Positions 19,828 to 53,249 of a DNA stretch of 64,000 bases are shown here, one piece after another; position 1 is the first letter of the stretch, and the number at the start of each line of letters is the position of its first letter. The stretch spans positions 4,483-68,482 of the IMG/VR virus record IMGVR_UViG_3300046798_000096; one strand, 5' to 3'. The position numbers and the translations under genes were made by a program. Origin of the DNA: a virus. The notes beneath the pieces were generated by a model. That model did no database searches, was not told the origin of the DNA, and was given only the letters and a program-made list of their open reading frames with translations.

Positions 19828-20095
19828 ATGCTTCCATGCACTCTTTGCAGTTCACGTTGTGGGCATACTCGGGATTGATCAGATAGCGATCGTCGGGAAT
19901 GTCCAGCGAAGCGCCGCACAGCAGCGCGCAGTTGTGCTCCCAGTGCACTACGTTCCGTGCCTGCAGGATCGCTAATGCCCTGCCCCAAGCATCACGAAAG
20001 CCTTGCGCGTAGTCGCTACCGGGGCCCGGCTGCGCTTCGCTGTAGTCGCGCTTAGCTTGCTCATACGCTTCCGAGATTGCCTCTAGTGCGGTCAT
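19814..20095 (-). CDS. Hypothetical protein with C-terminal Cys cluster
   Basis: SD AGAGGG before MTALEAISE. Confidence 0.55.
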   Translation of the reverse strand: MTALEAISEAYEQAKRDYSEAQPGPGSDYAQGFRDAWGRALAILQARNVVHWEHNCALLCGASLDIPDDRYLINPEYAHNVNCKECMEAYESK

Positions 20096-20376
20096 TGCTG
20101 CACCCTCTGGAAAGTGTGAAACAGATCGATCACTGAAACAATGAGCGGTACTGCAAACACGCACAGCATTACGTATGCCAGTACCGGTGGCATGCCTGCC
20201 CCGTAGTTCTCCACATCATCTAGATCTCTGCGCTGCATGCTCTTGCACACAGAGACGATACAGACAATCCAATCCACACACAGATAGATGATGCCAACCA
20301 GTATCGCTACGCGAACGGCCTCACCCGGCTGATTCATCCAAGCGGGAGCGATTGAATTGATCCAACGGACAAGCAT
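20092..20376 (-). CDS. Membrane protein (2 TM)
   Basis: SD GGGAG; two hydrophobic helices. Confidence 0.6.
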   Translation of the reverse strand: MLVRWINSIAPAWMNQPGEAVRVAILVGIIYLCVDWIVCIVSVCKSMQRRDLDDVENYGAGMPPVLAYVMLCVFAVPLIVSVIDLFHTFQRVQQ

Positions 20377-20390
20377 GGTGTCTCCCAATG

Positions 20391-20990
20391 AAAACCGAAA
20401 CACCCACAAGCTTTCTACCCACGCATTGCTGCGTTTCAGGGGCGCGCCCTAGTCGGCTTGTGGGGTGTTTCGGGCTTACCTCGGCCAATCGCTCCCGGAC
20501 CGGCCCTTGCGGACCGGTAGCCCGGAAACGGGATGGTTGTTCGAAGCAGCGAGCCGCACGCACACCACAGTGCGCACTGAGACACTTGGGTCTAGAGCAC
20601 CAAGCGAACGACAACAATAGAAGACTGCTCACCGCCCGAAACGTAGTGAATGTCTCTCTACCAGCATACTGGCGGGTTTCCCCGCTCGTGCTGAGGTTCA
20701 TCACTGTCTTCCACCCTCGGGCCTAGCGGGGTGAGTTGTCGTGAGTGTGTGCAGCTCGACGCTTCGAACACCTCCTAGTGGCCGGCACCCGATCGTGACA
20801 CGCCCTAAAGCATGTTCGAGTCACGTCCTTATTCCACGGTCATGAGTCGTGGTTTATCGGTTGCGTGTGTCTGTGGCCATCAGTCGAGGGCCAGCCACTA
20901 GGAGGTGTTTCGGCCAGCGCCAGCAGTAGAGCACCTGTGCGGTGGTTGCTGCTGCGCGCCTGGCCAGGGCTTTTCAACCCCTTACGTTCT
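20391..20990 (-). ncRNA. Large highly structured non-coding RNA candidate (~600 nt), family not recognised
   Basis: Gene-free gap with more than 10 nested stems (17-22 bp long-range helices), three GNRA tetraloops and four U-G wobbles that work only on the minus strand; see findings. Confidence 0.7.
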
Positions 20991-21008
20991 TATCCAAAGC
21001 GAAGCGCT

Positions 21009-21368
21009 TTAGATAACCTCCACCTCTTTGCGCGAGCCCTTGAACGACCACGTAGTCGTCTCGGGGCCATCGCCGACGCCGGCCTTGATGTGGGTGGTGA
21101 TCGACAGCACCTTGCCGTTGTAGTTGAACGGGCCTTTGCTGCCGGTACCTTCCGCAACGCGCTTGACAGCATCGCTGCGCAGCTGCTTGGCCGTCTCGAC
21201 GGCTGCTTCGGCCGCTCGCACGTCGGCGTCCGCGACTTCGTACGCAGCGAACAGGGCGGCTTTGCGGGCCTTCTTCTCTTCGGGCGACTCTTCGACGATC
21301 AGCTCGTTGTCCGAAACGACTTCGCTGGACGGTTCGACTGCGGCGACTCTGTTGGTTCTCTTGCTCAT
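21009..21368 (-). CDS. Highly expressed-looking hypothetical protein (acidic N-terminus, coiled coil, beta C-terminus)
   Basis: Strong codon bias, SD TAGGAG, own promoter; directly upstream of the ncRNA candidate. Confidence 0.75.
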   Translation of the reverse strand: MSKRTNRVAAVEPSSEVVSDNELIVEESPEEKKARKAALFAAYEVADADVRAAEAAVETAKQLRSDAVKRVAEGTGSKGPFNYNGKVLSITTHIKAGVGDGPETTTWSFKGSRKEVEVI

Positions 21369-21416: not shown

Positions 21417-21445
21417 ACTCTCGCTGATTCAGCGGTTAGGGTCAA
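21417..21445 (-). promoter_or_regulatory. Promoter TTGACC-CTA..-GAGAGT with CGCTGA-A-TCAGCG dyad in the spacer
   Basis: 17-bp spacer; dyad at 21422-21434. Confidence 0.55.
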
Positions 21446-21794: not shown

Positions 21795-22019
21795 TCACCC
21801 CGCTGCGGTCTCCGCAGCGGGAGCGAGCACAGGATGCTGCGCAATGACGAGCGCGGAATTGATTGCACCCTGAACGGCTGCCAGGGATCCGAACAGGATC
21901 AGCAGCTGGGATATCGTCAGGATGTTATCCTTATTGGTCGCCAGGTCCTGCTGCACCATCTTCTGGGCAACATCCACGCAGACCAGCATATCCATCAAAA
22001 CCTTGATTGTTCGTTCCAT
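21795..22019 (-). CDS. Hypothetical (membrane/helical) protein, leaderless candidate
   Basis: TTGACA-CTA..-17-AATAGT (22027-22055), 7 nt before the ATG. Confidence 0.55.
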   Translation of the reverse strand: MERTIKVLMDMLVCVDVAQKMVQQDLATNKDNILTISQLLILFGSLAAVQGAINSALVIAQHPVLAPAAETAAG

Positions 22020-22026
22020 GCCAGCC

Positions 22027-22105
22027 ACTATTACTCCTGCACCATCTAGTGTCAACTATCTGTCTACAACTTCTAGTTGCGCTTATCCCTCTGGTACTCC
22101 ACACT
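22027..22105. promoter_or_regulatory. Divergent promoter pair
   Basis: Minus: TTGACA(22050-55)-17-AATAGT. Plus: TTGCGC(22077-82)-17-CACACT(22100-05), 7 nt before ATG 22113. Confidence 0.6.
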
Positions 22106-22112
22106 CTTTCTT

Positions 22113-22454
22113 ATGTCGTGCACAAGCTGCTCAAAACAGCCAGGGTACCCACACCACTGCGTCTTGAGGGTTGGTCCAGGTGGGTTTACTAGCCGATCCA
22201 ATGAATGGCGCAGAGATCAAGTTTGGACGCTGTGCTGCAAGGCATCCGCGGTGAAAACTATGGATGGCGAAGCATTCCTGGCACTGTTGAACGAGCGCGA
22301 CAAGTCCCGACTGCGCTTCCAGCGCAGTCGGTCCCCGATGTTCGATCAGGGCCTCGACGGCTACCAGCGTGCGCTGTACGAAGAGTGGCAATCCCTGGAG
22401 ACTGCCGTCGCTGCAGAGATTGCGAAGGAGCGCACGTCATGTGGTACCCCGTAA
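22113..22454 (+). CDS. Hypothetical protein with N-terminal Cys cluster
   Basis: Leaderless geometry; alternative start at 22260. Confidence 0.5.
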   Translation: MSCTSCSKQPGYPHHCVLRVGPGGFTSRSNEWRRDQVWTLCCKASAVKTMDGEAFLALLNERDKSRLRFQRSRSPMFDQGLDGYQRALYEEWQSLETAVAAEIAKERTSCGTP

Positions 22455-22732
22455 TACCCATCACTGCAACTACCCGTGTGAAGCACACGCACACTACACG
22501 GGCCCGCTCGCTACTGAAGAGCAGAAGCTTTCACTACGCGAGGGTAAGCCGAGCCGGTAGGCATATGGGACTGTGGGCTCGGCCTTCCGAGTGGCGTGGC
22601 GTCTTTCAACGCCACGTGAAAGACCTTAGACCCGTCGCTGGTGAGCGCTTCATCTGGGGTGCAGACAATCGCTGGGTGGATACGACAGACAGCACGCGCG
22701 GAAAGAAGAATAGGAGACACCATGGACGGTAA
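22439..22732 (+). CDS. Hypothetical basic protein
   Basis: SD AAGGAG. Confidence 0.5.
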   Translation: MWYPVIPITATTRVKHTHTTRARSLLKSRSFHYARVSRAGRHMGLWARPSEWRGVFQRHVKDLRPVAGERFIWGADNRWVDTTDSTRGKKNRRHHGR

Positions 22733-23183
22733 CACGTGGACCAGCAACCATAAGGTTGCCGAGGCGATCAACAAGAGCCAGGACGCCAGCGGCTGCACTA
22801 TCACGCTGCTGGCTGAAGACGGGGAAGAATTCGACGAACTGGTCGGAGACCTGGCAGGGTGCTGCACGGAACAGACGCTGCGTGGGTCTTACGTCGTAGA
22901 CTTCGCTGGCTACGAAGAGGGAAGTGTGCGCTGGTATGTGCAGCTTGCCTTGCGCTCGCTGCACAACCACAGCATCCCCCGATTGAGCCATGCCGAGCGA
23001 AATGGCCTGCGTAATGCCACAGGCGGCTGGTCTCAGCACGTGGAAGAGTCGCATGACCAACTGGCTGACAATCTGACGAAAGCCTGCGAGATGCTGGCCG
23101 AGTACAAGCGACAGACAGCCCACTACAAATCCTTCACTCAGCTGAACGCAGAAGCAGAAGCACTCCTGGAGACGATGCGATGA
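22722..23183 (+). CDS. Hypothetical protein
   Basis: SD TAGGAG; coupled to the next gene. Confidence 0.6.
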   Translation: MDGNTWTSNHKVAEAINKSQDASGCTITLLAEDGEEFDELVGDLAGCCTEQTLRGSYVVDFAGYEEGSVRWYVQLALRSLHNHSIPRLSHAERNGLRNATGGWSQHVEESHDQLADNLTKACEMLAEYKRQTAHYKSFTQLNAEAEALLETMR

Positions 23184-23638
23184 CACCAGAATTCAAGCGA
23201 CAGATCGTGCAGGCAAAGTACGACCTAGGGGAAGAGATCACCCAGGAAGACGTGGAGATCCTGGCCACCGGCTGGGGAAACCTACAGGGATGGATCATCT
23301 CGGTGGAGAAAAGGCTGCGCGCCATGGATCCGCCAGAGGACACGGAATCGCTGATAGAGCAGCTGGACGAGGCGCTGTGCACGCTGCTGCACATTGGCGA
23401 CGAGGTAGGGGAGCATTCGCCTCGAACACACCTGGACCTGTTCTACGCTCGCGCTGCGCTACAGATTCAGCGTGACGCCAACGCCGATCTGGATAACAGA
23501 CAAGGTCAGCTGCGGGTTAAGCTTGCCCAAGCAGTGACTGCGCTGCGTGGCCTGACTGTCATGAAGAGCCAGGACGCTGGGAACGTTGTGGATGCTCAGA
23601 GCGTGCATGAGATTGCAGACGAACTGGAGCAGCTGTGA
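23180..23638 (+). CDS. Hypothetical coiled-coil protein
   Basis: ATGA coupling. Confidence 0.6.
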   Translation: MTPEFKRQIVQAKYDLGEEITQEDVEILATGWGNLQGWIISVEKRLRAMDPPEDTESLIEQLDEALCTLLHIGDEVGEHSPRTHLDLFYARAALQIQRDANADLDNRQGQLRVKLAQAVTALRGLTVMKSQDAGNVVDAQSVHEIADELEQL

Positions 23639-23841
23639 CACCAAAGCTCTGGACACTGGAAACCAACCAATCAGGTACCTTCATCCGAGAAGCCACCGAG
23701 CCACCACCGAAAGCCCCTAGGCGGCTTTCGGTGCGCTTCGCCTGGTACGACTTGTGGATCGGAGCCTACTGGGACCGCAAGCAGCGCGTGCTGTACGTGT
23801 GCCCGCTGCCCATGCTGCTCATCACCATTGGAGACCACTGA
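23635..23841 (+). CDS. Hypothetical protein
   Basis: GTGA coupling; FAWYDLWIGAYWD motif seen in phage hypothetical proteins. Confidence 0.6.
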   Translation: MTPKLWTLETNQSGTFIREATEPPPKAPRRLSVRFAWYDLWIGAYWDRKQRVLYVCPLPMLLITIGDH

Positions 23842-24017
23842 TGCTGACCATTGCACTACTGATCGTGATGCACCTGTACGGCGCTGCGTTGATGTACAGC
23901 TACACTCCACTGGCGCGCTTCGCATCGCGCGCCATGGGGCAGCGCTGGCTGTACTGGTTCATGATCCTGACCTGGGAGTACCAGGCCACGTACATGCTGC
24001 TGTGTAGGAAGCGGTGA
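23841..24017 (+). CDS. Small membrane protein
   Basis: SD GGAG; two hydrophobic segments. Confidence 0.55.
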   Translation: MLTIALLIVMHLYGAALMYSYTPLARFASRAMGQRWLYWFMILTWEYQATYMLLCRKR

Positions 24018-24350
24018 CTAGGGCTTGAACCGAAAGCCTGAGTCCTGCTCGCCGATGTGCTGCGTGCCCTCGAAGTCACTGTCCCAAGAGTCAGGCAGCT
24101 GGAAGCCCCTCTTGTAGTCGACGGCGACGGTCTTCTGGACGTTGATGCCCCGTGGTAGTTGCGACTGCACCCACGCGCCGAGTCGTCGCATCCCGGCGAC
24201 TCGGCGAAGCTCCGCCCCCTGGGCTTGCCAGTACGATTCCAGTGCGATCCAAAAGATCAGCATTGACAAGCCCAGGATGGCCCACAGCATGGACCACTTA
24301 CTTAGCACGTCTGATGGGTCGTTCCAACTCAGCGTGCATAAGCTCGCCAT
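24018..24350 (-). CDS. Membrane protein (1 TM)
   Basis: WSMLWAILGLSMLIFWIAL helix; convergent with the plus cluster. Start uncertain. Confidence 0.5.
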   Translation of the reverse strand: MASLCTLSWNDPSDVLSKWSMLWAILGLSMLIFWIALESYWQAQGAELRRVAGMRRLGAWVQSQLPRGINVQKTVAVDYKRGFQLPDSWDSDFEGTQHIGEQDSGFRFKP

Positions 24351-24806
24351 GTTGTGGGTGATGCTGACACGCCCCGAGGCCGACCCCAGCGCTGCCCCAG
24401 CGATGGGGGATCGCCGTGTCCTTCTTTCCGACCATGCCCGAGCACCAGCACGTGCGCCGTGTTTGCTTCGGCGTTGCCTTGCGCACGTGCTTGCACATTG
24501 GTCGAGAGGGGCGCCCACCGTCCTTGCAGCACAGATTACACCACATGCTGTGCACACCGAACGTCTGTGCACCAAGGCTCCATGAAGTGACTGCTCTCGA
24601 AGAGCAGCGAACTGCAGGGGTGCACGTAGCGTGAAGAGTAGAGGCACACCCAGGTGCCCCCACGCGAGTCTTTGCGCCCAGCGCAGCGCTCGCGTGCCTT
24701 GCCCTCGCGGCACGCCCCGACGTCATGCGGCTGCATGAAGAACGGGGCGTACTTGGGGATGTCAGTGGGCACTCGAAGGTACCCACTGAACGTGCAGCAG
24801 CGGCGG

Positions 24807-25370
24807 TTATTGGCGGGGCTTTCCATAGTAGTAGGCACTGCTTGGCACAGAGACGGGAAGATCATCTCCCGGCTTCTTGGTGTAGTCCACCTTGCGTATC
24901 TCGGTGACGTTGCTGTCTTGCAACTTCACCATTGTGCCAGACTCCATCTGGTAGGTAACGCTTTCCAAGGCGACAGGGCCTGGGAAGTACTCCTTGGTGT
25001 CGTCCTCGCAACGGCAGGGGCCAGAACGATCGTCCTTGCCCAAGGTAACGCTGTCAGCGAGCTTGGCCTGCGCCTGTTCGAGCGTGTCAGTGGTGTAGCC
25101 ACGCTTCACGCAGTAGTCGTGGATCTGCTGCTCACGGTTGCGAAACTCCGGGTGAGCCTTCACGTGCGTGCAGTCCGCGGCAACTTCCACCTCCATCTCG
25201 ATCACCTCTGCCTCCATCTCGACCATCACTCTGTCTGCTGGGTTCATGGTGATCTGCAGCTTGGTGACTGCGTTGATGGGAGTCTCTATTCCTTTTTCGT
25301 CTCGGTAGACGATGCTTGCGTCGCTGACATCTCCGGTGGGGCACTTGATGATGAATCCGGGTCTGGCCAT
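24807..25370 (-). CDS. Hypothetical protein
   Basis: SD AAGGA; good codon bias. Confidence 0.65.
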   Translation of the reverse strand: MARPGFIIKCPTGDVSDASIVYRDEKGIETPINAVTKLQITMNPADRVMVEMEAEVIEMEVEVAADCTHVKAHPEFRNREQQIHDYCVKRGYTTDTLEQAQAKLADSVTLGKDDRSGPCRCEDDTKEYFPGPVALESVTYQMESGTMVKLQDSNVTEIRKVDYTKKPGDDLPVSVPSSAYYYGKPRQ

Positions 25371-25930
25371 GATACGTTCCTTACGTTGTACTCAATGTTG
25401 TAGGCTCTATAGTCTGGAAGGACTCGGCGGGCAACGACGTTGCTTTCACGGTACAAGGAGACATCCCACAGCCCGTCTTGCTCTGGGGTGCCACTGATCC
25501 TGAATCGAGCGCCAGAGCGCAAGCGCGGCACTTGATTCAGGCTCTCATACGTTAGGAACCCCAACGTACTGCCCCAGCACATCTTGCGAATCTTTCGCTG
25601 CTGGTGGTCTGTGAATTCAGTGAAATCGTCGTCCAGCCACTGGTCGTCTCTCCACACCAGGATGATGCCATTACGAGCACAGCGTATCAGCTCTGGCTTC
25701 TGTGGTAGATCCAGACCCCATGCTTGAGTGATGTAGACCAGCTCGACCCAGTCACCCATCTTCTCCTTCGAGATCAGGAAGAAGTCCTTGGGTTTACCCC
25801 TGGTTAGCACATGCAGCCCACACTTTGGGCATGGGCTCACGCGAGCTACGTAGCCGATCTGCCAAGGCAAGAGCCTCGGGCACTTGCAGCAGTCAGCCCA
25901 CGGTGTCAGTGCGTGGCGTCGGTAAGTCAT
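25286..25930 (-). CDS. Hypothetical protein
   Basis: 214-aa ORF with an N-terminal Cys cluster. Confidence 0.5.
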   Translation of the reverse strand: MTYRRHALTPWADCCKCPRLLPWQIGYVARVSPCPKCGLHVLTRGKPKDFFLISKEKMGDWVELVYITQAWGLDLPQKPELIRCARNGIILVWRDDQWLDDDFTEFTDHQQRKIRKMCWGSTLGFLTYESLNQVPRLRSGARFRISGTPEQDGLWDVSLYRESNVVARRVLPDYRAYNIEYNVRNVSWPDPDSSSSAPPEMSATQASSTETKKE

Positions 25931-53136: not shown

Positions 53137-53249
53137 CTATCTGCGCTCCAGAGACTCCCTGCGGCGGGTGCCTGTAGGTCCGTCCTGCAGTATGCTAGCT
53201 CTGCATGTGCGAGTTACACTAACGCAGGGTCTCTCCGGAGCGCAGATAG
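53137..53249. other. Long intergenic hairpin (~25-bp stem)
   Basis: CTATCTGCGCTCC/GGAGCGCAGATAG 13-bp perfect stem plus AGAGAC-CCCTGCG/CGCAGGG-TCTCT. Confidence 0.6.

Follow-up and report, generated by a model that had tools for sequence, protein, structure and literature searches.

Locus and flanking genes

The window analysed here, 64,000 nt in length, comes from a complete 69.3-kb IMG/VR virus with terminal repeats. Genes for portal, terminase, primase-helicase and DNA polymerase are recognised in this phage. The polymerase is 36–38% identical to those of its best GenBank phages, which are Pseudomonas siphophages, and as a query in IMG/VR it returned no relatives. Near-identical pieces of the region described below occur in soil, estuary and sediment metagenomes. 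The region is a structured gap within a run of small leftward genes, and is flanked by ORFs of 119 aa (upstream) and 94 aa (downstream).

The 119-aa gene occupies 21009–21368 on the minus strand and ends at 21009. The locus can be recognised in every related phage by a homologue of this gene, and a profile search assigns 108 cluster representatives to the family at E≤1e-3. One weak row of this family is labelled ‘host-nuclease inhibitor’, and in one relative (L065) the homologue comes after a YqaJ exonuclease gene. The protein itself has no match in Pfam or PHROG. Its AF2 model (pLDDT 85) consists of a disordered N-terminus, one 47-residue helix and a three-stranded sheet, a fold with no PDB or BFVD match at E≤0.001. 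A sigma-70-family gene (Sigma70_r2/r4) is found a few genes upstream of the homologue in L011 (361–978), L013 (994–1614) and L071 (1–148); among the window ORFs tested in 21795–25930 there is no Sigma70_r2/r4 Pfam match. The candidate promoter at 21445–21417, from which the first-pass annotation suggested that the RNA and the 119-aa gene may be transcribed together, was not flagged by a promoter scan. The downstream 94-aa gene (20092–20376, minus strand) encodes a protein with hydrophobic stretches, and is kept only in L007, the closest relative of this locus.

Coding potential and folding of the gap

The stretch between the two genes (20391–20990) had been described as a large gene-free gap, and it is real, with no credible gene inside it. 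Three internal ORFs, 20321–20704 (−), 20388–20726 (+) and 20840–20977 (−), have no Pfam match and none of them is kept in L007. The plus-strand ORF, the sole one for which this was measured, is flat in GC content by codon position. Folding is far stronger than expected from composition. The minus-strand MFE is −292.6 kcal/mol, against −239.6 ± 5.4 kcal/mol in dinucleotide shuffles (z −9.9), and the plus strand, included in the shuffling check that had been proposed, gives z −8.7. Five sub-domains, folded singly, reach z values of −3.3 to −6.6 each against dinucleotide shuffles. Other soil and estuary runs show four variants, two of which replace C by U opposite a G within a helix; the Logan runs hold near-identical 151-nt pieces only, from which no covariation is obtainable.

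A second long intergenic helix occurs elsewhere in the window, at 53137–53249 on the minus strand. It has 16+6 bp with about 60 nt enclosed (z −5.4), lies directly upstream of the next leftward gene, and is a candidate processing site of the RNase III type.

A cmscan of the whole window against Rfam 15 gave no match at gathering scores. The region itself gave only noise at E≤10, and the three related loci with long spacers (L007, L009 and L013, described below) gave nothing at E≤1. ARAGORN finds no tRNA or tmRNA in the window and no tRNA in L007, L009 and L013, and there is no Rfam tRNA match in the region or in these three loci. These searches agree with the earlier statement that no diagnostic motifs of group I or group II introns, RNase P or tmRNA are seen; with no such match in Rfam or from ARAGORN, the RNA is none of these, nor is it a tRNA. 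A weak RNaseP-T match (17.6 bits against a threshold of 60) merely reflects the closing helix and hairpin of the arm-start helix discussed below. An intron was also considered and rejected: the 119-aa protein is full length relative to its spacer-free homologues, and the 94-aa gene has its own Shine-Dalgarno sequence and ATG.

Helices and domains of the window RNA

Read in the direction of the minus strand, the structured region is preceded by S0, an 11-bp hairpin of the MFE structure (20991–21015) in which the stop codon of the 119-aa gene lies. S0 is kept in L007, where the compensating changes in the alignment comprise one double and two single ones; in L009 and L013 the position is taken by a different hairpin. 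Next is module A (20908–20984), recognised by homology to L009 and L013, which consists of a GNRA hairpin (20981–20966) followed by a long hairpin (20965–20912). The long hairpin is the 5' hairpin of the first-pass annotation, and is present in the MFE.

The H3 domain (20768–20908) is apparent both in the MFE and as an inverted repeat (z −6.6). Its main helix, which closes a three-hairpin junction and starts with the word CCGAAACACC (20913–20904), had been given as about 22 bp; the helix exists, but has 19+5 bp and pairs 20908–20884 with 20792–20768. Among the smaller pairings that had been listed, CCACG/CGUGG is present in the MFE and both GAAGAC/GUCUUC and CGUGAC/GUCACG are absent. No homologue of the H3 domain occurs in any relative, and it is specific to this phage.

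The central domain (20541–20767) has a closing helix of 8+10+3 bp in the MFE structure. The expected pairing of 20758–20749 with 20559–20550 is found there, as is that of ACGACAAC with GUUGUCGU. The closing helix and the ACGACAAC/GUUGUCGU pairing enclose module C (20734–20711), a GAAA-capped hairpin (20693–20662) and further hairpins. The hairpin GCGGG-GAAA-CCCGC was correctly recognised but misplaced, its position being 20672–20685 and not 20662–20675. Another hairpin of the central domain, CAGCA...UGCUG followed by GACAUUC, is collinear with L007 543–574. As domains, H3 and the central domain are without homologue, so the evidence for them is purely thermodynamic.

The 3' part begins with an 8-bp hairpin with a GCAA tetraloop at 20499–20518, which is the ACCGGUCC-GCAA-GGGCCGGU hairpin (20518–20499) of the MFE. 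It is followed by the 5' arm of a long-range helix to the start region of the next gene (20474–20496; seen in the MFE and in the pairing probabilities) and by a terminal helix (20391–20473). This last helix, like that of H3, begins with CCGAAACACC, as had been pointed out; it pairs 20473–20456 with 20411–20395 in 11+6 bp and is followed by UUUU, all of which is present in the MFE. Two small hairpins, one with a GCAA loop, are enclosed, so that the 17-bp helix has a branched interior of 57 nt. Overall there are four GNRA loops, one more than had been counted, the extra one being GAAA at 20975–20972.

The terminal helix is terminator-like and stands before the 94-aa gene, making it a candidate intrinsic terminator. 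A terminator scan did not list it, the interior being too long for the rule of the scan. At the same place L007 has a hairpin followed by UUUUU.

L009 has two perfect helices, 470–490 with 640–660 (21 bp) and 659–682 with 766–789 (24 bp), both of which start with one 14-nt word and end with one 9-nt word, mirroring the CCGAAACACC pair. Thus in the window and in L009 two distinct long helices each open with the same word of 10–14 nt and close with its complement. The repeated words at the feet of these helices permit alternative pairings, and may be a switch or the trace of a duplicated hairpin. L009 shows a further complementarity, between the 5' part of module C and the 3' strand of module B.

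Related loci and conserved modules

Four related loci are known, each directly downstream of a homologue of the 119-aa gene. The closest relative, L007, is a 1.1-kb contig found by protein look-up, with flanking proteins at 87% and 86% identity to those of the window. The spacer has 375 nt, against 630 nt in the window, and carries module B in place of module A. Beyond their two ends the spacers of L007 and the window are not significantly alignable (local score 24, shuffles 19.5 ± 2.5). In L009 and L013 the gene is followed by long gene-free stretches of 720 nt and 450 nt.

Module A of the window (20984–20908) is homologous to L009 783–856 and L013 3147–3219. Across these three phages it has 23 pairs, with 97% of the cells paired and 10 of the 23 pairs changed on both sides. 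Its paired fraction, covariation score and number of doubly changed cells each exceed those of all 500 shuffles; one of the 500 reaches ten doubly changed pairs, and slid controls give 0–2. All three sequences share the terminal loop GCACA and the bulge CUCUA without change. The CM for module A (R1) scores 86–95 bits in the window, L009 and L013 and matches only there. Module B lies at L009 853–987 and L013 3018–3150, and is matched by L007 475–609 at 46 bits (E 1e-12). It has 29 pairs, 98.9% of its cells paired and 14 of the 29 pairs changed on both sides, figures that are flattered by the model-fitted alignment. It is not detectable in the window, where the best score is 3.5 bits (E 0.3), in the terminal helix (20391–20473). 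With just three sequences behind each, modules A (in the window) and B (in the relatives) are nonetheless kept by compensatory substitutions. Covariation among homologues, which had been named as a check on the RNA, is supported for A (10/23) and B (14/29). Module C is a hairpin (window 20738–20712) that is 96% identical over 27 nt to L009 520–546; its loop core UAGGCC-GA recurs in L013 on a different stem.

Conserved U-G pairs of modules A and B on the gene strand fix the RNA strand, and argue against an element that acts at the level of DNA. An element without RNA function, such as a replication origin, a cruciform, repeats that bind protein or the remains of palindromic mobile elements, would agree with the long inverted repeats, with the 10-bp word repeated in alternating orientation, with the same design in L009 and with the fact that the plus strand folds well too. 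However, in DNA and in an RNA of the opposite strand the conserved G-U pairs would become A-C mismatches, the compensatory changes preserve pairing and not sequence, and there is no AT-rich tract or iteron array, which leaves a DNA-level element highly improbable. The claim of a structured minus-strand RNA is borne out: the RNA folds on the gene strand, where both the conserved G-U pairs and the compensatory changes of the relatives lie.

The set of modules and their order vary between phages. The window has A and then C, L009 has C followed by A and B, L013 has C, B, A, and L007 has only B of the three. Circular permutation fails to explain the order, since C,A,B cannot be rotated into C,B,A. 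L013, with all three modules, folds no better than its shuffles (z −1.2), in contrast to L009 (z −14.2), which indicates that the extreme stability comes from lineage-specific, nearly perfect helices of 19–28 bp. In L009 the long helices measure 21, 24 and 28 nt. These helices are conserved neither in sequence nor in place.

The variation bears on the view taken in the first-pass annotation, in which the whole region, some 600 nt, adopts a single global fold as a large, ornate ncRNA of a new class akin to GOLLD and ROOL. In favour of such an RNA are the extreme stability, the four GNRA loops and a locus that resembles those of tRNA-island RNAs; CCGAAACACC could even close the whole molecule through its 10-nt complement (20913–20904 with 20404–20395). 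What recurs among the phages, however, is parts alone, in varying content and order. The spacer of the nearest relative is different, most of it being replaced, L013 has all three modules but is not unusually stable, and the 3' end is tied to the next gene as part of its mRNA. A single conserved class of this kind is not upheld, and a single-fold RNA appears unlikely.

Module A can also be compared with the nut and put signals of processive antitermination, in which case it would allow read-through of the hairpin-plus-U-run before the 94-aa gene. Its first hairpin has a GAAAA pentaloop in L009 and L013 (GGGU-GAAAA-GCCC) and, in the window, a GAAA tetraloop on a 6-bp stem. We take this GAAAA/GAAA loop to resemble that of lambda boxB. 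The bulge GCUCUAC recalls boxA, and the module belongs to an early operon and lies upstream of the terminator-like hairpin. Against this, order and spacing are reversed, with the boxA-like GCUCUAC downstream and inside the second hairpin, and no arginine-rich N-like protein is recognised among the neighbours. L007 keeps the hairpin-plus-U-run without module A, and the terminator scan did not flag the site. An antitermination role for module A is accordingly very unlikely.

The site after the 119-aa gene differs strongly among more distant relatives. L010, L011, L012 and L066 have no long gene-free spacer directly after the gene, and L010–L012 and L065–L070 show no similarity to the modules. 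L071 and L072 have a hairpin-rich spacer from which modules A and B are absent. In L014 and L016, where the homologue has 116 aa, two to four tRNA genes lie at the syntenic spot, the window itself being without tRNA. They include tRNA-Thr, Leu, Val and Lys, and the site after the gene covers 1408–1488 and 2570–2644 in L014, and 686–766, 915–1520 and 1525–1782 in L016. The L016 site also holds an ORF for a LAGLIDADG_2 homing endonuclease.

The family is very rare, with nothing found in IMG/VR, in 185,579 species genomes or in INPHARED. Among 50,697 phage records, blastn detects nothing that matches the region, and the flanking proteins found no relatives in IMG/VR and JGI metagenome contigs. 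Patterns for modules B and C have no match in IMG/VR. The module A pattern matches in L018 and in 46 genome contigs, but none of these can form the stems and their number is that expected by chance. A match to the hairpin pattern in L008 lies inside a portal gene and is also due to chance. The gene-free gaps upstream of DUF7227 gene relatives (L002–L005) are AT-rich and repeat-bearing, and are unrelated.

The 3' helix over the start of the 94-aa gene

The Shine-Dalgarno sequence GGGAGA (20386–20381), the ATG at 20376 and codons 1–11 of the 94-aa gene lie within 20344–20386 on the minus strand. The arm at 20496–20474 pairs with positions +3 to +33 of this gene, that is, with the start codon and codons 2–11, to form a helix of 12+4+2+5 bp, inside which lie the terminal hairpin, its U-run and the Shine-Dalgarno sequence. 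The probability per pair is 0.87–0.996, and the mean remains at 0.85–0.97 across different 3' ends.

L007 has a counterpart, in which the arm forms the best duplex found anywhere in the spacer by an unconstrained search. Local folding of either phage gives the arm-start helix as the MFE; when longer contexts of L007 are folded, alternatives better by 2.5 kcal/mol compete with it. Cognate arms and start regions have ΔG values of −33.5 and −34.3 kcal/mol and are 9–13 kcal/mol more stable than swapped combinations (−20.5 and −25.3). Of the 19 pairs shared by the two phages, 11 are identical, three are changed on one side and five on both, and none is left uncompensated. All five double changes are synonymous codon changes that are compensated in the arm. 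The 3' end of the spacer thus pairs in cis with the beginning of the following gene, and compensated synonymous changes preserve the helix. Within the first 13 codons the window and L007 have seven synonymous and no replacement differences, indicating that the ATG at 20376, which gives 94 aa, is the true start. In the database the downstream protein is called from Met14, with 81 aa (window 20337–20376).

Comparison with known systems

In phages, GOLLD and ROOL are found close to tRNA islands (PMC5737381; bioRxiv 10.1101/2024.12.08.627333). The RNA described here is, like them, a GC-rich, multi-junction phage RNA of several hundred nucleotides with GNRA loops, likewise without an assigned function, and its locus may be of the tRNA-island type, in that relatives, though not the window, carry tRNAs at the site. 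Unlike GOLLD and ROOL, it has no match to an Rfam model in the window or in the relatives. Stems and pseudoknots follow a fixed order in GOLLD and ROOL; here the modules are swapped and reordered, and the 3' end is part of an mRNA leader. Membership in either family therefore fails, both on the Rfam models and on the fixed architecture.

There is also some resemblance to the R-sites of T7 early mRNA, in which long, partly irregular helices stand between small early cistrons and may affect translation of the adjacent gene. The RNase III sites of T7 are single hairpins of about 60 nt. The present region differs in its 600 nt, its conserved non-helical loops and its multi-way junctions, and cleavage is putative. 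RNase III signals call for helices of about two turns (20 bp or more), a length attained among those predicted for the window (19+5, 8+10+3, 11+6 and 12+4+2+5 bp).

Masking of a start region over a long distance occurs in other phage mRNAs, as in the leader of the MS2 maturation gene and the alternative structures of lambda cIII. In these as in the present case an upstream segment pairs with the start codon and first codons. There is no sequence relation, and here the helix encloses a hairpin domain of 79 nt together with the Shine-Dalgarno sequence, within a larger cassette. The tRNA cluster of T4 contains species 1 and 2, stable non-tRNA RNAs that are released from a longer transcript. By description alone, the window RNA may be likened to these as a structured non-tRNA RNA in an RNA-gene region of a phage, but ARAGORN finds no tRNA genes in the window, unlike the T4 cluster.

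Proposed organization and function

The best explanation for the region, which we put forward tentatively, is a mosaic cassette of separately folding, swappable RNA modules that are probably released from an early transcript, and whose 3' part masks translation of the next gene. Lying immediately downstream of the 119-aa gene, the cassette would be transcribed together with the leftward early genes on the minus strand. The site after this gene would be a hot spot for RNA genes, occupied in other relatives by tRNA genes or by nothing. Modules would be cut from the early transcript, probably at the helices of 19–27 bp and by a host enzyme of the RNase III type, and might then persist as stable RNAs, binding a factor of host or phage, as is supposed for GOLLD and ROOL. 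The 3' helix would keep the small hydrophobic 94-aa protein untranslated until it is opened or cleaved. Processing and any trans function of the modules are matters that we purely infer, and a purely cis-acting role would explain the same data.

The main rival to the mosaic cassette is an intercistronic leader that acts only in cis, much as in T7 early mRNA, with signals for RNase III or other processing, stabilisers of mRNA ends and a translation mask, and with no trans-acting RNA. The arm-start helix is clearly cis-acting, a hairpin covers the upstream stop codon in all relatives, the helices of 19–27 bp fit RNase III substrates, and there is another such helix at 53137–53249. The spacers of L071 and L072 are hairpin-rich too, yet are without modules A and B. 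However, A and B keep invariant loops and bulges despite unrelated downstream genes, which exceeds the need of a processing stalk, and several relatives manage without any spacer, or have tRNA genes at the same site. A leader of this kind is a serious possibility, but on balance we consider it somewhat unlikely.

In a more speculative version, which is rather improbable, a phage RNA particle or decoy would be built up from the modules, comparable to the nanocages of GOLLD and ROOL but modular. The candidate joining loops are the invariant, self-complementary CUGCAG of module B, GGCC in the loop of module C, and the GNRA-type loops of module A. They would join RNA copies or bind a host factor, leading to a higher-order assembly, in which the paired ‘foot’ words of the long helices could serve as a conformational switch.

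Two motifs supported by covariation (A and B) and a hairpin with a conserved loop (C) are new relative to Rfam. They are so far known from only four loci, in uncultured soil and environmental phages. What looks like a large ncRNA candidate in a phage can thus be a set of shuffled modules, in a slot that holds tRNA genes in relatives, and the cassette of modules links structured RNAs to tRNA islands, as with GOLLD and ROOL. The arm-start helix offers a clean natural case in which synonymous changes at the beginning of a gene are compensated in an upstream untranslated segment.
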